NCBI GenBank assembly: GCA_951813605.1
Contig: OX638379.1
Coordinates: forward strand, 684,830-748,829
DNA: 64,000 bases
Direction: 5' to 3'
Source of the DNA: an uncultured Bryobacterales bacterium
Lineage (GTDB): Bacteria; Acidobacteriota; Terriglobia; Bryobacterales; UBA6623
Positions within the stretch are counted from its first letter, which is position 1. Every line of letters starts with the position of its first letter. Made by a program: the position numbers and the translations under genes. A model generated the notes under the pieces. The model was not told the DNA's origin and made no database searches. It worked only from the letters and a program-made list of their open reading frames with translations. Below are positions 8,857 to 16,073 of this stretch, one piece after another.

Positions 8857-9762
8857 CTACACCTCGGCCCGATAATTCCGAGCGAGCGCCACAAAGATCT
8901 CCTTGAGGGACATTCGATTCACTGTCAAGTCCATGAGCCCTGGCACGATCCTCCGAACGCGGCCTACTCCCGTCTCGTCGCGGTAAGCACTCTCGACGAA
9001 CCGGACACGCTGTCCTACCGAGGCCGGCAAAAGCCACGATTCGGGCAACGCCGCTGGAAGCTGCCCACCCGGCTCCAAAGTGAACTCACAGTGGCGAAAT
9101 CGACTCTCGAGCGAGGCGGCGGACTCCGAAAGACGGAGCGCTCCCCGATCGATCACGCCCACCCAATCCACCAGCCGTTCTACTTCGTCAATGTCATGCG
9201 ATGCCACCAGAACGGTCCATTCGGTCCGACCGCTAAGTTCTAGGAGCCCGCGAATGAACTCATCACGCACGAGCAAGTCCAAACCGTTGAAAGGTTCGTC
9301 CAAGACAACCAGTTCCGGCCGATAGGCCAACGCAACCAGCAGAGCCGCCTTGCTTCTCATACCGCGAGAAAAGCCGTGGATCTTCTGTGCGAGGGGAAGA
9401 TCGAATTGGCGAATCAGCTGAGCGCACAAGTCCGTGTCCCATGAGGGATACATGGGTCGGCAGTAGTCGACCAGCTCCTGAACGCTCATCCATCCAGGCA
9501 AGTCCTGGTTCTCAGACACGTAGCCGATTCGGGACATCTCGTCGGGACCGAGCCGAAGGGAATCGACATCCAGAACACTGGCTCGACCGTTTGAGGGCCG
9601 GATCATGTTCATAAGCATCTTGATCACTGTGGTCTTGCCCGCACCATTCGGCCCCAGCAAGGCGAATATGCTCCCCCTTGGAACCTGCATGGTGAAATCG
9701 TTGACGGCTAAGTTTTGGCCGAATCGCCGTGAAAGTTCTCGGGTTTCGATGATTGCGCTCAT
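8857..9762 (-). CDS. ABC transporter ATP-binding protein (YtrB-like)
   Basis: GPNGAGKTT, FSRGM, VVLDEP, ASHD. Confidence 0.93.
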   Translation of the reverse strand: MSAIIETRELSRRFGQNLAVNDFTMQVPRGSIFALLGPNGAGKTTVIKMLMNMIRPSNGRASVLDVDSLRLGPDEMSRIGYVSENQDLPGWMSVQELVDYCRPMYPSWDTDLCAQLIRQFDLPLAQKIHGFSRGMRSKAALLVALAYRPELVVLDEPFNGLDLLVRDEFIRGLLELSGRTEWTVLVASHDIDEVERLVDWVGVIDRGALRLSESAASLESRFRHCEFTLEPGGQLPAALPESWLLPASVGQRVRFVESAYRDETGVGRVRRIVPGLMDLTVNRMSLKEIFVALARNYRAEV

Positions 9763-10193
9763 TTTTCAGTGCTCCCCATAATCGCCTCGAGCTCTCGGTG
9801 CCGTTTTGGTTGGACCTCGGATAAACATGTCCATTGGTGTTGAACGGCATCCACGAGCTGCTCGAGCGTCAGAGACAGCCTTCTCGCCTCCACGACCAAC
9901 TGCTCAACTTCCCGGGCCAAGAGCACCGAGCGCTCTTTCGGCGAGGGATCGGGGAGGTTAGCGACGAGAGTACCGACCCCTGGCTGGACCTCCAGGAGTC
10001 CTTGATCTACCAGCCGCGTCACAACCTTTTGCGCGGTGTTGGGATTGATCCGCAGCTCCTGGCTAAGCATCCGAACCGAAGGAAACCTGTCTCCGGGTGA
10101 CAGTTGGCTCGAAACGATCGCTTTCTGCACCGCATAGACCAACTGCTTGTAGATAGAGGTGCCCGTTCGTAATTCCACCGTGAAGGGCAACAT
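9759..10193 (-). CDS. GntR family regulator, YtrA subfamily
   Basis: IYKQL..LSPGDRFPSVRMLSQELRINPNT winged HTH with a short C-domain; ATGA overlap with the ATPase. Confidence 0.92.
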   Translation of the reverse strand: MLPFTVELRTGTSIYKQLVYAVQKAIVSSQLSPGDRFPSVRMLSQELRINPNTAQKVVTRLVDQGLLEVQPGVGTLVANLPDPSPKERSVLLAREVEQLVVEARRLSLTLEQLVDAVQHQWTCLSEVQPKRHRELEAIMGSTEK

Positions 10194-10380: not shown

Positions 10381-11551
10381 CCTGCTCGATCGGAGCGCGC
10401 AGGACACCCTGATCTCGCTTGAAACAGCCCTCGCGTTCGCACTCGTCACCGCCACGGTGCTGGTGATCCAGACGGTGGTTCGGATGGAGTCCATCGATCT
10501 CGGGTTCAATTCCCATGGCATCCTAACGGCCAGATTGCCATTCTCCGTTGCGAATTACCCGACTGCCGAGAGCCTAAACTCTCACTACCGGACTCTACTG
10601 AATCGAACCGCCGGCATCCCTGGTGTGAATTCGGTGGGAGCTAGCACATCACTGCCCCTTAGTGACATTCGAGAGTCGCGACCCGTGGCTATTGGAGCAG
10701 GCGAGACAGGATCCGCCCTAGTCGCACACGTAAGCCCGGAATATCTTGCCACTTTGGGAATCCCGCTGCTGCAAGGCCGCGCATTCCGCGACTCCGACGA
10801 TAACCGAAACTCGCCCGTGGCAATCGTCGACGCCGGATTCGCGCATTCGAGATTCGGCGACATAGATCCGATAGGAGCGTCGGTCACGATAGGCGAGCTA
10901 CCGGGCCAGCGGTCGTCAATTGTTGGAGTGGTAGCAGATGTTCGACAATTCGGGCCCCGGCGTGCCTTCGAGCCGACGGTTTACCTGCCCTTGCTCCAAA
11001 GTCCGCGGTGGAGCACGTTCGTTGCGATAAGGACTGGATCTTCGTCGCCGCCTGGATTATCGAATGCTCTCAGGAAAGCGGTGGCCGCAGTGGACAAGAA
11101 TCAGCTGGTCACGAGCATTCGATCCATGACACAACGACTGGACGCCAGAACTCGTCGCCCAAGATTTAGTCTCTGGTTGTTTGGCGCGTTTGGCAGCCTG
11201 GCGCTCGCTATGGGTATGGTCGGCGTGTACTCTGTCACGAGCTTCGCCACCCGTCGCCGCACGAAAGCCATAGGAATTCAACTGGCGCTCGGGGCACCCC
11301 AGTCAAGCGTTTACCTCCCGGTCTTCGCTCGTGGGATTCGGCCCGTTGGTATCGGGCTGTACGGAGGCATTCTCGTCGCTATTGGGTTCGGCCATCTCTT
11401 GGAGAGTCAATTGCTTGGCATTCGACCGATCGATCCGGTTGCTGCCGCTGGAGGGGTGCTCGCGTTGCTGCTCGTCAGTGTGCTAGGCAGTTACGTTCCG
11501 GCGCGACGGGCCTCGCGCATCGACCCCCGTGCCGCGATCTGGTTGGCATGA
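10381..11551 (+). pseudogene. C-terminal half of an ADOP-type (MacB/FtsX) ABC permease, 5'-truncated
   Basis: Frame opens after a TAG at ~10380 in the mid-protein motif LISLETALAFALV; DLGF, IVGVVADVRQ and IGIQLALGA motifs; about half the length of the intact paralogs in this window. Confidence 0.75.
11055..11551 (+). repeat. Direct repeat copy 1 (~497 bp)
   Basis: Ungapped alignment to 14567-15063 with about 48 mismatches counted by eye (~90% identity). Confidence 0.9.
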
Positions 11552-12080: not shown

Positions 12081-12827
12081 TCAGTCAAGCCGTGCCGTCA
12101 GCACCAAAAAGACTCCGTCCGCAATGCCCCGAATCCCAGCCTTGCCAACAACCACGGTCTTTCCTTCCCTCGTGTTTAGGTTGGTCGATATCTGCGTCTC
12201 TTCGATGCTTCCTTCGCGAATAACCTGCAATCTTAGTTCAATGTGGCTCAGTCTGATCGAGTCCGGTTGGAGGCGATCGCCCTCAATGCCGATCTGAAAT
12301 AGATACCGGACTGCCTTCTCAGAACCGAAATAGCCCTCTACGAGAGCGACCGGTCCGGGTGCCGTGCGGATCGTGAATGCCTCCAGAAGGCGGTACGAGA
12401 CGAACGGAAACGTCTTCTGGATTGCATCGACGGCGCCCTCTATGTGGGCCGGCATCGCTTGCGACTGCTGTTCGTCCCGGTAGGCACCGACAAGGTGCAG
12501 GTCAATGACTACATTTGTTGGCACCGGCTCTGCGACCGGCTGATCCAGTTCCCCGAGCAACTTGAGCGTGGCTGCGACTTGGTCGGGATTCCCGGAAAGG
12601 ACAACCGCGCGAAGTGCCGAGTCCGATGTAATCGTGGGGCCACTATGTCGCAGGACATGTGCCATTTCCTGGGCATTCGCGTGCCTAGCCCAGTAGATTT
12701 GAGTGACGGAAGCGGAGGGTTGAACATCCCCTTGGCGGCTCACGCTCTCGTCTTGGGCGGGTAGTGTGGCTATTCCGGGTAGAATCGCCAGCGGCAGGAA
12801 GCATCTGAGAATCGAATCACGAGACAT
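12081..12827 (-). CDS. Exported protein with a secretin N-domain-like region and a reduced secretin-like C-terminus
   Basis: AAGGAG RBS; signal peptide; TQIYWARHANAQEMAHVL...DSALRAVVLSGNPDQVAATLKLLGELDQP (Secretin_N-like); ISTNLNTREGKTVVVGK...VFLVLTARLD. Confidence 0.7.
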   Translation of the reverse strand: MSRDSILRCFLPLAILPGIATLPAQDESVSRQGDVQPSASVTQIYWARHANAQEMAHVLRHSGPTITSDSALRAVVLSGNPDQVAATLKLLGELDQPVAEPVPTNVVIDLHLVGAYRDEQQSQAMPAHIEGAVDAIQKTFPFVSYRLLEAFTIRTAPGPVALVEGYFGSEKAVRYLFQIGIEGDRLQPDSIRLSHIELRLQVIREGSIEETQISTNLNTREGKTVVVGKAGIRGIADGVFLVLTARLD

Positions 12828-12837
12828 GGGAACTCCT

Positions 12838-13425
12838 TCAGTCAATCAACCAATGGATTTCTATCGAGGCGTCCGCCGTCTGAATGCGGAGCTGCGCTAA
12901 GACCCCGGGTCCTTCACCGGCTTCAACGAAGATCAATTCTCCTGAATCGAGAGCACCAAATGCTTCGTCCAATGAGTCCGCGCGACCCGGTGATTCGGGC
13001 GGTACGGTGTTTAGCTGTCGCGAGAGGAGTAACGCACCTTCCGGAACCTCAGCAGCGATTCCCGCCATCCGCAGAGGTGGCATCTCCGGCTCGCTCGTCA
13101 GCAGGTCCCACACCGCCGCCACTCCAGCCAGCAGTGCCAGCGGCGCACAGGCCCAGAGAATCCCTGCCAATAGTGGGTTCCTGCTCGCCGGGCCGCCATC
13201 ATCAAGAGCAATCCTATCCAATACGCTCACTCTGATGCCGGCACGGAGGCCAGCAGGGATCGTTACGGCGCTGCTCGCCACGGCGGATCTTACGACGTGG
13301 AATTCTCCAACCTTTTTCGCACACGGCTGGCACTCTCTCACGTGCCCGTCAGTCCAAGTGCGGCGACGACCCTTAAGTTCGCCGCCCGCATAGAGGGCCA
13401 ATTCCGAATCGCGCGGACAACTCAC
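12838..13425 (-). CDS. Zinc-finger (zf-HC2/ZAS) anti-sigma factor, single TM
   Basis: C..ELALY..GEL...HVRECQPC (HxxxCxxC); one TM; ATGA overlap with the ECF sigma. Confidence 0.85.
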   Translation of the reverse strand: MSCPRDSELALYAGGELKGRRRTWTDGHVRECQPCAKKVGEFHVVRSAVASSAVTIPAGLRAGIRVSVLDRIALDDGGPASRNPLLAGILWACAPLALLAGVAAVWDLLTSEPEMPPLRMAGIAAEVPEGALLLSRQLNTVPPESPGRADSLDEAFGALDSGELIFVEAGEGPGVLAQLRIQTADASIEIHWLID

Positions 13426-14048
13426 GATGTCCTCCGTTCTATCCTGAGGATGTACTTCCTGAGCTTCGCACGTGCAGAGCTGATTTGTGATCGGACGGTC
13501 GCCTCAGTAGTGCCGAGTGCCTTTGCGACTTCTCGGGTCGTCAGTCCCTCCAGGTCGCGCAGCGTGATAGCAGCGCCCTCCTTATAGGGAAGCCGTGCGA
13601 TCGCCTCGCGAATCAGTTCACGCTGCTCCTGCCGGGCCAAGCTCTCAAACGGCCCTGACTGGCTCGATGCCAGATGCAGCGATTCGATACTCACGCCATG
13701 GTGACGCCGTCTGTTCTTCGCTAAATCTCGACAGACGTTTGCGGTGATGCGGTAAAGCCATGGAGCGAGCTCGCGCGATTCGTCGAACCTCGCCAAATAC
13801 CGGTAGGCCCTTACAAATACCTCTTGGACCGCATCCTCCGCATCCGAGTCGCTACCCAAAATCGCCCTTGCCGTACGGAATACGCGTGATTCATGCAGTT
13901 CGACGATATAACCGAAGGCCGCGACATCACCCGCTTTGGCGGCTACCACAAAGCCGCGAACTGCATCTGGCCCCGGATGATCGGAGGCTCCGTCCGACAT
14001 CCATTGGACTAGACTGACCTCGGAACGCATGCCGATGAATGTGCTCAC
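13422..14048 (-). CDS. ECF RNA polymerase sigma-70 factor
   Basis: DAEDAVQEVF and WLYRITANVCRD (region 2); LRDLEGLTTREVA..LG..EATVRSQISSAR (region 4). Confidence 0.94.
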   Translation of the reverse strand: MSTFIGMRSEVSLVQWMSDGASDHPGPDAVRGFVVAAKAGDVAAFGYIVELHESRVFRTARAILGSDSDAEDAVQEVFVRAYRYLARFDESRELAPWLYRITANVCRDLAKNRRRHHGVSIESLHLASSQSGPFESLARQEQRELIREAIARLPYKEGAAITLRDLEGLTTREVAKALGTTEATVRSQISSARAKLRKYILRIERRTS

Positions 14049-14566
14049 ATTATTACTACTCCCCGAACACGGGATCCGTGCAAGGAAAACTTGTCGATTA
14101 AGCCCTTTGAGGCCGTTGGCCGAAACTTCGAGCTTGCTTTAGTCGAGCTGATGGCGTTCAACCGTAGAACACCTAGGATCCGTCGCCGAGATTGACAAGT
14201 ATCGCCGTCTTCCAGCGTGGATGCCCGCAGGGGCTTCGCACCTCCGGCAAAATCTAGGGCAATACTGCAATGCGCAGTCTCCGCTTGTCGTGGCGGCCTT
14301 CGAATTTCTGCAGCCTGAGAGACGCGGGTGGGCTGGTGGAATCGCCGCGCCTCGTCCACCAGCTTCGGGTCGCTGCAGATCTCGACCCGAGGCGCAAAAT
14401 CCTCCTCGATGACAGCTTGCCATTTCGAGAGCAACGCGCTCAGGTGCGGCATGATGCCCACCCGTGATGCACCTCGGCTAGCCACCTCGGAGCACAAGAT
14501 TCTGCGGGACTGGCTAGGTGCCAAATCACAGGCGGCCGACCGCGCCGGCCGCGAATCCGGAGGGCA

Positions 14567-15063
14567 GATTATCGAATGCTCTTAGGAATGCGGCAGCCTC
14601 CGTGGACAAGAACCAGCTGGTCACGAGGATTCAATCCATGACCCAACAACTGGATACCAGAACACGTCGCCCAAGATTCAGTCTCGCGTTGTTTGGCGCT
14701 TTTTGCAGCCTGGCGCTCGTTATGGCTACGGTCGGCGTTTACTCTGTCACGAGCTTCGCCACCCGTCGCTGCACGAAGGCCATTGGAATTCAACTGGCGC
14801 TCGGAGCACCCCAGTCAAGCGTTTACCTCCGGGTCTTCGCTCGCGGGATTCGGCCCGTTGCCATCGGTCTGTGCGGAGGCTTGCTCGTCGCTATTGGGTT
14901 CGGCCATCTCTTGGAGAGTCAATTGTTCGGCATCCGACCGATCGATCCGGTTGCTGTCGCTGGAGGGGTGGTCGCGCTGCTGCTCGTCGGTGTGCTCGGC
15001 AGTTTCGTTCCGGCGCGGCGGGCCTCGCGCATCGACCCCCTTGCCGCGATCCGGTTGGAATGA
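14567..15063 (+). pseudogene. Second ADOP permease 3' fragment (direct repeat copy 2)
   Basis: ~90% identical to 11055-11551; only the last ~165 codons, with no cognate start. Confidence 0.82.
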
Positions 15064-15089: not shown

Positions 15090-16073
15090 CTATTTCCGCT
15101 GAGGTCCCGTCACTTCCCACCACCTGCCGCCGCTCGTAGTCTTGAGGACCCCTCCTTCTCCTCCGTAGTACAAAGTCGGCGGCCTCGTCTTCGTGTCGAA
15201 GACCAAGGTCCAGGTGCGATTTGACCATTGAAGGCCCGCTCGCTGGAAGGTTTGGCCGCTATCGTCGCTGCGGAAAACGCCCTTAGTCGTGCCGGCGTAC
15301 AAGCGTTCCGAATTGGCCGGATCGACCGCTAGCACGAGGACACGCTGGATGAGAGGGGTTATTGCCGCGTTCCAGGTCCAGCCGCCGTCTGTAGATCGGT
15401 AGACCCCTGCTGGATCGGTCCCTGCATACAGAATCCTGGAATCAGTGGGGTCGATCGCGAGGGCTGTGATGTCGACGTCGTACAGGCCATCCGGATTTGC
15501 ACGCCAGTTCTCACCCGCGTCGGTCGTCATGTATACGCCGTGCCAGGTGCCCGCGTACAGCGTTCTCGGGTGACTGCGGTCGATGACTAGGCATCGCAGC
15601 GTCTTGTCGATCAGTCCGCGGTTCGCCTCGCGCCACGTCTCCCCGCCGTCGACAGTCTTGAACACTCCTCCGCCATCGGTACCCGCATACACGGTTTTCC
15701 CGTTCTCCGTGTCGATCGCCAAGCCCCGGATTCTGGGATCGGCAATGCCCTCGGAAGCTGAATGCCACGAGGCAGCGGCGTCTGTCGACTTGTATACGCC
15801 CATTTCGTAGGTGCCAACGTACAGCACCTCCGGATTCTCCGGATCGAGTGCGATTGCGCGCGGCGACAGGTTTTCCAGGCCCGTGGACGGCCAGTTGTCC
15901 TTGCCTCCCTGGGTTGTCTTGCAAAGCCCTTTCGCCGCTCCCGCGTAAATCGTCCCCGTGTCTGTGGGATGTAAAGCGATCGCCTGGGTCTCACCGCCTC
16001 CCGGCGAGCCCATTTGGCTCCACGCCGAAACTGGAGGCCATGCGAGCGCGAGGAGCAGCAGCCTAACCTTCAC
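15090..16073 (-). CDS. Exported BNR/Asp-box repeat beta-propeller protein (VPS10/Ycf48-like)
   Basis: Signal peptide; about 7 repeats of LAIDP..LYAGT..GV(Y/F)xSxDGGxTW. Confidence 0.88.
   Translation of the reverse strand: MKVRLLLLALAWPPVSAWSQMGSPGGGETQAIALHPTDTGTIYAGAAKGLCKTTQGGKDNWPSTGLENLSPRAIALDPENPEVLYVGTYEMGVYKSTDAAASWHSASEGIADPRIRGLAIDTENGKTVYAGTDGGGVFKTVDGGETWREANRGLIDKTLRCLVIDRSHPRTLYAGTWHGVYMTTDAGENWRANPDGLYDVDITALAIDPTDSRILYAGTDPAGVYRSTDGGWTWNAAITPLIQRVLVLAVDPANSERLYAGTTKGVFRSDDSGQTFQRAGLQWSNRTWTLVFDTKTRPPTLYYGGEGGVLKTTSGGRWWEVTGPQRK

Follow-up and report, generated by a model that had tools for sequence, protein, structure and literature searches.

Sigma factors of the extracytoplasmic function (ECF) type provide a major pathway for signalling in bacteria, and for most of their groups the input is unknown. 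In the RpoE-RseA-RseB system, the autoregulated sigma operon also codes for a protein of the periplasm, which binds the anti-sigma factor's periplasmic part and gates the proteolysis of that factor. RseB has a LolA-like fold and belongs to a known family, RseA is not of the zinc type, and the signals are outer-membrane protein C-termini and lipopolysaccharide (LPS); CpxP, the feedback inhibitor of CpxA, follows a similar logic. The subject here is a trio of genes in a stretch of 64,000 nucleotides (nt) from an uncultured Bryobacterales bacterium (GenBank contig OX638379.1, positions 684,830 to 748,829; the whole stretch is referred to as the window). The trio encodes, in order, an ECF sigma factor, a single-pass anti-sigma factor and an exported minimal secretin homologue, which we call the mini-secretin. 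The reading that we favour, and consider moderately probable, is that the trio forms an autoregulated module for envelope signalling: by binding the anti-sigma tail, the mini-secretin would control the release of sigma.

Cell-surface signalling is the other described system that comes close. The signalling domains of TonB-dependent transducers and the C-terminal subdomains of FecR-type anti-sigma factors are both STN (“secretin and TonB N-terminus”) folds, and they pair by beta-sheet extension (PMC11637429). The signalling domain of FoxA, which has this secretin-type STN fold, binds the C-terminal domain of FoxR by such sheet extension and protects it from Prc (PMC11637429), and FoxA/FoxR would be the nearest documented logic for the trio. 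An earlier note on this DNA held that cell-surface signalling uses TonB receptors and not secretin-like proteins; given the STN folds, this is only partly right (PMC11637429).

A minimal secretin homologue in a conserved trio

The third protein of the trio is a real but minimal secretin homologue. The earlier note had described an exported protein of about 250 residues with one Secretin_N-like domain, in agreement with its length of 248 amino acids (aa) and its sole Pfam match, PF03958 (29.9 bits against a cut-off of 28.2), which is shared by 26 of the 29 family members. The profile, compared with GspD structures, matches their N domains (E 6.1e-8). The Secretin model itself (PF00263) matches 0 of the 29 members even at E<=1. 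The N-terminus of the mini-secretin carries no lipobox, and identity as a lipoprotein or pilotin was rejected on this ground.

The AlphaFold2 (AF2) model of the mini-secretin, built from a 29-row alignment, has a mean pLDDT of 83.6, falling below 50 only for residues 1-34. It consists of an alpha/beta N domain (41-94) and then a C-terminal part with eight strands and one helix. In a Foldseek comparison of the whole model with the PDB, every row listed down to rank 37 is a secretin (E 4.8e-9 to 6.8e-5), and the classes matched are GspD, XcpQ and PulD of type II secretion systems (T2SS), PilQ of type IV pili (T4P), InvG and MxiD of type III secretion systems (T3SS), phage pIV, and BfpB. TM-scores are about 0.3 and rmsd is high, as expected from two flexibly joined domains and many gaps. 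To exclude the N domain as the sole source of the signal, residues 100-248 were folded separately from a 27-row alignment. This core alone reaches a pLDDT of 91.7 and a pTM of 0.85, and its ten best listed PDB matches are secretins (InvG, MxiD, GspD, PilQ; E 1.7e-4 to 8.7e-4), with modest TM-scores on the query (0.43-0.51 for these ten, 0.43-0.53 for the secretin matches at E 1.7e-4 and weaker) and high rmsd.

Comparison of profiles gives the same relationship in sequence. As a reference we took 30 full-length secretins from this genome and 12 relatives (the longest open reading frame (ORF) of each of 31 loci, with one 379-aa ORF dropped). The mini-secretin family aligns with these acidobacterial secretins in hhalign at 86% probability and E 4.7e-6, collinearly over query columns 19-249. 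The N domain falls on the last N domain of the secretins, “VVIDLHLVGA” on “QVLIDAKIYEV”, the strand opening the secretin domain, the helix and “YRLLEAFTIRT” on the start of PF00263, and “ISTNLNTREGKTVVVGK” on the “..T.V.V.DG.TVAIGG” strand. Structural similarity to secretins had been named beforehand as a check, and it emerges from Foldseek with the whole model, from Foldseek with the core alone and from the collinear alignment.

The family is large and carries no descriptive name. The 90% collection holds 30 relatives, which are given no name other than “hypothetical protein”. Among representatives at 50% identity there are 626 clusters at E<=0.001, including 132 at E<=1e-10; of the 626, 150 are listed, and almost all of these are 215-310 aa long, apart from a few fragments and a few members of up to 377 aa. 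Residues V226, V227, G228, K229 and A230 are invariant in 29/29 family members. A subfamily of about 305 aa has an extra domain of some 60 residues between the signal peptide and Secretin_N (members P0006, P0007, P0009-P0011 and P0016-P0018, alignment columns ~33-96; L001:5779-6705). KH_1-type Pfam matches are weak and occur in 9/29 members (best E 4.8e-5); the extra region is probably a second small alpha/beta domain.

A motif-based scan with one genome per species yielded 42 related loci, all of them in Acidobacteriota and spanning Bryobacterales, Terriglobia, Acidobacteriaceae, Solibacteraceae and Ca. Marinacidobacterales. Of the 42 loci, 39 have a homologue of sigma upstream and in the same orientation, which puts the arrangement of the trio far beyond chance; two of the other three are cut by contig ends, and one has a partial match of 39 residues. 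An ORF with the anti-sigma tail motif described below lies between sigma and mini-secretin in 37 of the 39 sigma-bearing loci, the exceptions being L018 (truncated) and L019 (where ORF picking failed). The anti-sigma stop and the mini-secretin start are separated by -11 to +15 nt in 27/27 aligned loci, a count that leaves out ten near-duplicates or N-terminally short ORF calls. In a crude BLAST clustering of the flanking ORFs of the 42 loci and the window only the trio recurs, in 40, 31 and 26 loci; the next most shared neighbour cluster is found in 6 loci only, and there is no fourth recurrent gene among the 42. No T2SS, T3SS, T4P, Tad, filamentous-phage or pilotin gene recurs beside the trio in these loci, and neither does a TonB-dependent receptor.

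The family is common in the phylum. Among 301 Acidobacteriota genomes sampled across it, 136 match the family at E<=1e-5, the weak end of these being partial hits on N domains that belong to true secretins. Each of the best 29 rows (one from the unpublished genome G036) covers the model from at latest position 34 to at least position 249. A single family in the sample has no match in its 22 genomes. At ten distant loci, picked for long open frames and not as a random sample, sigma is upstream in 10/10 with an anti-sigma frame between; the anti-sigma profile matches 8/10, and a hairpin-like anti-sigma tail is recognised by eye in 10/10. Synteny of the three genes, likewise a check set beforehand, thus holds in the near and the distant loci alike. 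The long open frames over the mini-secretin at the ten loci proved to be no fusions but read-through over an anti-sigma gene in a frame of its own, and no fused relative was found among proteins of 544-2000 aa, which is weak evidence, with lengths of 434-544 aa lying outside the search.

Some individual loci are interrupted or look damaged. In a related member of the Bryobacterales (L002:3068-5292) the sigma gene is split by an insertion into pieces ~1.7 kb apart, while the anti-sigma and mini-secretin genes are intact. The insertion encodes a 517-aa DDE transposase (L002:3539-5092, minus strand; PF13701 92 bits, PF01609 71.5 bits). At L040:5899-6658 the mini-secretin matches in two pieces and the ORF ends after 205 aa, and at L018:5347-5685 the anti-sigma ORF stops at 112 aa and has no tail; frameshifts or assembly errors may account for these last two loci.

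The anti-sigma tail and its possible role

The anti-sigma factor scores below the cut-offs of the zinc anti-sigma models of Pfam and NCBIfam (zf-HC2, a weak match at E 0.055 and 14 bits against 22.2; the RsrA-type NCBIfam model at E 3.9e-5 and 23.7 bits against 62.5). It is nevertheless recognisable as a zinc-type anti-sigma factor (ZAS) by the H-x3-C-x2-C motif in its N-terminal anti-sigma domain and by the adjoining sigma gene. H28, C32, C35 and W192 are invariant in 28/28 aligned homologues; a Cys is present at position 3 in most rows, replaced by a His at 3 or 4 in 4/28 (L020, L022, L029, L035). There is a single hydrophobic segment, from residue 85, identified with the Kyte-Doolittle scale, which is a simple measure of hydrophobicity and not a topology predictor. 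It is followed by a linker of 74 residues (family median 65, range 47-141 with two rows of mis-picked helix set aside, Pro median 16%) that is unalignable between subfamilies. After it comes a tail of strand-turn-strand pattern, h-x-h-x-T-x-D-P-x-h-x-h-h-W-h-h, which here reads LRIQTADASIEIHWLID and in which P186 and I190 are nearly invariant. The earlier note had described a beta-hairpin-like end here; in the periplasmic part of the anti-sigma factor, nothing but this hairpin tail is conserved. The Pfam scan of the trio gave no match to the FecR family at E<=1.

The complex of mini-secretin residues 36-248 with anti-sigma residues 150-195 was predicted from 28-row alignments in the same row order. 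The ipSAE of the docking is 0.75 (runs 0.78, 0.75, 0.73), against 0.14 for the best control. The mark used is reached by 58 of 80 solved complexes and by 2 of 110 mismatched pairs, a calibration that is only approximate here, the alignments being our own. At least 85% of contacts are common to the runs, and the partner pLDDT is at least 62. In the predicted interface the tail (172-195) lies against mini-secretin residues 131-139 (the helix), 213-219 and 222-230, and the contact pairs of lowest error join 224-229 with 188-193 in constant register. The TVVVGK strand meets the I-x-I-H-W strand of the tail, and invariant residues of both proteins are at the interface. No solved complex of this type is known to us, which makes it unlikely that memory of a template shaped the prediction. 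The contact between anti-sigma factor and mini-secretin, which was also among the checks named beforehand, is thus predicted; the model supports binding of the tail to the mini-secretin but does not show it. In distant subfamilies with an altered tail (e.g. ..TPIYFVVDESIDI, ..AVVFVANPNADL) the contact strand is altered too (LFIVGAS, PYILGVG), one example being the tail IYFVVDESIDI paired with the strand LFIVGAS, and this covariation is suggestive.

The sigma factor is of the ECF type, with regions 2 and 4 only. Its Pfam matches Sigma70_r2 (PF04542, 60.9 bits), Sigma70_r4_2 (PF08281, 56.2 bits) and Sigma70_ECF (PF07638, 28.3 bits) are above cut-off, as is the superfamily model TIGR02937 for sigma70-ECF in NCBIfam (108.3 bits, cut-off 42.9). 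No NCBIfam equivalog reaches its cut-off, the best being PRK11922 (119.9 against 204). In most of the related loci displayed, sigma is preceded by a two-block motif (TTGCACG/TCAACG, N17, GTA[G/T]T/GTATAT), which we take to agree with the AAC / CGT-like type of ECF promoter. In its strict form the motif is found a single time in the 6.19-Mb genome, before this operon. The promoter ends 6 nt before the sigma GTG, and this short distance hints at a leaderless or very short-leader sigma transcript. Close relatives keep (A/G)TGAG at the sigma start; alternatively, translation may really begin further downstream, at an ATG (residue 7 or 18).

From the tail, the docking and the promoter we infer a module of the following kind. 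The zinc-type single-pass anti-sigma factor would hold the ECF sigma factor at the inner membrane, while its flexible, Pro-rich tether would present a beta-hairpin of about 20 residues in the periplasm. The mini-secretin, presumably exported by Sec and descended from a secretin cut to its N3-type domain and a bare eight-stranded core, would receive this hairpin on the most conserved surface of the core, formed by the TVVVGKA strand, the neighbouring strand and the single helix. Occupancy of the tail by the mini-secretin would then decide how susceptible the anti-sigma factor is to site-1 and site-2 cleavage. Titration, alteration or loss of the mini-secretin would free sigma and lead to more of all three proteins, closing a feedback loop. 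Of all this, the identities of the domains, the homology and fold, and the conservation of trio, tail and promoter are established here; the docking is a prediction, and the proteolytic logic, the sign of control and the place in the periplasm are inference. The mini-secretin is, on this reading, probably the periplasmic partner of the inhibitor and not a pore.

Several points weigh against this module. No protease gene is linked to the trio. The N3-type domain and the eight-strand core are what build rings in true secretins. Relaxed promoter patterns do no better than a reversed-sequence control (20 matches against 20, and 40 against 59), so that the search found autoregulation but no wider regulon, and a feedback loop alone would have no evident purpose. 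The docking is a matter of model confidence and not a measurement. The covariation of tail and strand comes from comparing subfamilies of related genomes by eye, not from a statistical test, and the naming of the elements missing from the mini-secretin goes by loop lengths and by the alignment to acidobacterial secretins.

These missing elements can be named by reference to f1 pIV, in which the outer and the inner barrel each receive four strands per subunit, two gate loops are present (Gate 1 bounded by Gly267 and Gly297), and the lip has 36 residues, as in phage, against 51-60 in type II secretins (PMC8563730). The strand count of the mini-secretin core, eight, equals that of the pIV barrels (4 + 4). 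Its strands are connected by 10 residues plus the helix, and then by 4, 5, 8, 2, 3 and 3 residues; after the aligned stretch ~66 residues follow in the hhalign template L044 and 9 in the query. Judged by chain order, the parts that appear to have been removed are the lip, the excursions of both gates and a long loop leading into the last strand, this loop being, as we take it, the membrane-touching “amphipathic helical loop”. The corresponding loops of the mini-secretin measure 10 residues plus the helix, 5, 2 and 3. The N0 and S domains are absent as well. We therefore do not file the mini-secretin as a secretin: it is homologous, yet it fails the domain model and lacks the membrane and gate elements.

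The alternative that survives best, though we think it unlikely, is that the mini-secretin forms a ring at or in the outer membrane, with the long tether crossing the periplasm, and that the trio relays the status of the outer membrane across the envelope. Both the ring-building N3-type domain and all eight core strands are kept, the strand count being that of f1 pIV (PMC8563730), the tether of 47-141 residues with ~16% Pro would in principle be long enough to span the periplasm, and the docking prediction fits a ring equally well. Against this, a loop of 10 residues and a helix stands where the beta-lip has 36 or 51-60 residues (PMC8563730), and the last two strands are separated by 3 residues at a place where L044 still has ~66 to follow. 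No lipobox, S domain or pilotin gene was found in the family alignment or the 42 loci, and the core folds confidently alone as a monomer (pTM 0.85). Given the short loops at the lip and at the membrane-touching position, a periplasmic partner is at least as likely as an outer-membrane ring.

Slightly more doubtful is the view that it is no sensor at all: that the mini-secretin is a mere output of sigma, an envelope stress protein, and that its predicted contact with the tail is a false positive. ECF operons often carry target genes downstream, the binding is a prediction, and some mismatched pairs (2/110) also reached the mark. It is harder for such a view to accommodate that the predicted interface brings together invariant residues from the two proteins, that the tail is the one conserved periplasmic element of the anti-sigma factor, that anti-sigma and mini-secretin are translationally coupled in 27/27 loci and that tail and contact strand vary together. 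We give it a small share of the probability.

More speculative again, and improbable in our estimate, is that the secretin fold has been recycled as a sensor. The anti-sigma hairpin would imitate the strand of a neighbouring protomer and so cap the mini-secretin, which if uncapped would polymerise or attach itself to unassembled secretin or to other beta-structures of the envelope, with the tether acting as a ruler or tension sensor across the periplasm. If true, this would represent a new class of trans-envelope mechanosensor or assembly sensor. A related but very improbable proposal is that the mini-secretin caps or co-assembles with unassembled protomers of true secretins, and thereby reports secretin assembly stress or aids secretin biogenesis. 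The core fold is common to both, the genome encodes three full-length secretins, and the tail binds a strand of the core sheet in the predicted complex much as a neighbouring chain might; the trio, however, shows no linkage to T2SS, T4P or Tad genes in the window or the 42 loci. Last, the idea of a decaying secretin remnant beside a sigma/anti-sigma pair, which would fit a protein far shorter than any secretin and the failure of the Pfam Secretin model, is effectively refuted by the size of the family (626 clusters, nearly all of the 150 listed being 215-310 aa, with intact frames), its invariant motif, its confident fold and its conserved synteny.

Operon layout and surroundings

The three minus-strand ORFs lie where the earlier note had placed them according to the ORF listing, and the coordinates of all features are collected in the table below. 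The first two genes do overlap as it had described, by 4 nt shared between the sigma stop and the anti-sigma start, but the sequence of the overlap is GTGA, with a GTG start, and not ATGA. The 10-nt gap between the anti-sigma stop (12840-12838) and the mini-secretin ATG (12827), and the AAGGAG ribosome-binding site at 12838-12833, can both be read in the sequence; so can, in the translations, the two C-terminal peptides that had been picked out, LRIQTADASIEIHWLID and ISTNLNTREGKTVVVGK...VFLVLTARLD. The mini-secretin ORF has its stop at 12081-12083 and an alternative TTG start six codons upstream.

Features of the trio, in window coordinates, with the basis of each assignment
Feature	Position	Strand	Basis
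ECF (group 4) sigma-70 factor	13422-14048	minus	ORF listing, 208 aa, GTG start at 14048
Single-pass anti-sigma factor	12838-13425	minus	ORF listing, 195 aa, GTG start
Exported minimal secretin homologue (mini-secretin)	12081-12827	minus	248 aa + stop
Candidate autoregulatory ECF-type promoter	14055-14083	minus	TTGCACG (14083-14077), 17-nt spacer, GTAGT (14059-14055)
H-x3-C-x2-C zinc-binding motif of the anti-sigma factor (H28, C32, C35)	13321-13344	minus	invariant alignment columns
Predicted anti-sigma transmembrane helix, residues ~85-103	13117-13173	minus	best 19-residue window, mean Kyte-Doolittle 2.18
Conserved beta-hairpin tail at the anti-sigma C-terminus, residues 172-195, predicted docking element	12841-12912	minus	motif in 37/39, W192 invariant
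Probable Sec signal peptide of the mini-secretin, residues 1-24, cleavage after LPA	12756-12827	minus	sequence reading; hydrophobic N-termini in 29/29 members
Secretin_N (N3-type) domain, residues ~41-99	12531-12707	minus	PF03958 29.9-30 bits vs cut-off 28.2
Trimmed secretin core, residues 100-248, eight strands + one helix	12084-12530	minus	AF2, Foldseek, hhalign
Most conserved strand TVVVGKA, residues 224-230, predicted tail contact	12138-12158	minus	alignment + complex prediction

The earlier note had seen no T2SS or T4P genes in the window, and searches with PF00263 (secretin) and PF00437 (T2SS/T4P ATPase) likewise find none within it. The three true secretins of the genome (PF00263, 90-144 bits) and its four T2SS-type ATPases all lie outside the window, and the mini-secretin family is single-copy in the genome.

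The trio is flanked on the opposite strand by two truncated FtsX/MacB-type permease fragments, one of 364 aa with MacB_PCD and FtsX (10457-11551, plus) and one of 181 aa with FtsX only (14518-15063, plus). They hold a 300-nt direct repeat of 90% identity (11055-11354 and 14567-14866, 3512 nt apart), which suggests a rearrangement or insertion at the site. The remaining neighbours are ordinary, and their linkage to the trio is not conserved: on one side lie an ABC ATPase (PF00005) and GntR regulator (8857-10193, minus), on the other an exported protein with BNR/Sortilin-Vps10 repeats (15090-16073, minus).

Comparison with known systems

The trio rests on an uncharacterised protein family. In the literature we found no published description of such a trio, and none of PF03958 with a sigma factor or of a “mini-secretin” or “minimal secretin”. 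The main text of the ECF reclassification paper (PMC7826278) uses the word “secretin” 0 times and mentions Acidobacteria three times; its per-group genomic contexts sit in the supplements, which may list the trio. With the present proposal, a widespread family of 626 clusters gains a concrete and testable candidate for an input device, in the form of a secretin-derived periplasmic protein predicted to hold the tail of an anti-sigma factor. A subunit of a pore would have been reused as a signalling partner, and the 20-residue peptide with its docking strand is a candidate minimal binding pair that can be mutated. Acidobacteria are abundant in soil and poorly understood (PMC3174227), and a conserved envelope switch would be a useful handle on their physiology.

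The relationship to secretins (GspD/PulD, PilQ, InvG/SctC, f1 pIV, RcpA) is one of homology, in that an N3-type domain and the eight-strand core are present in both and are collinear, the T-V-V-V-G of the mini-secretin aligning on the secretin t-v-v-i-G-G strand. Secretins are however 400-900 aa long, in contrast to the 248 aa of the mini-secretin, which PF00263 does not match. Unlike them, the mini-secretin has no N0 or S domain and no secretion or pilus partner genes, and it is always wired to a sigma/anti-sigma pair.

As regards RpoE-RseA-RseB, the logic proposed here is the same, but the anti-sigma factor is of the zinc type. No match of the third protein to the RseB/MucB family was found at E<=1 in Pfam or NCBIfam; membership of the mini-secretin in either the RseB or the FecA family was rejected, as no such family is matched. 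Anti-sigma chains with a beta-barrel of their own are also linked to beta-structure of the outer envelope, whereas here the beta-structure is a separate, secretin-derived protein.

The FecI-FecR-FecA, FoxI-FoxR-FoxA and PupI-PupR-PupB trios of cell-surface signalling likewise consist of an ECF sigma factor, a single-pass anti-sigma factor and a third envelope protein, and in them, as predicted here, the third protein touches the C-terminus of the anti-sigma factor via a secretin-family domain. The third protein of the present trio differs in not being a TonB-dependent transducer and in matching Secretin_N only. Unlike FecR, its anti-sigma factor has no folded FecR-type periplasmic domain but only a tether and a hairpin, and unlike in FecA, FoxA and PupB, the predicted contact is made by the secretin core and not by an STN domain, with no transport function evident. 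The trio would work like a cell-surface-signalling or an RseB-type trio, yet it is a member of neither, having no TonB-dependent transducer, no FecR domain and no match to the RseB family. Through it, secretin-type domains would be tied to anti-sigma factors outside TonB-dependent cell-surface signalling as well.

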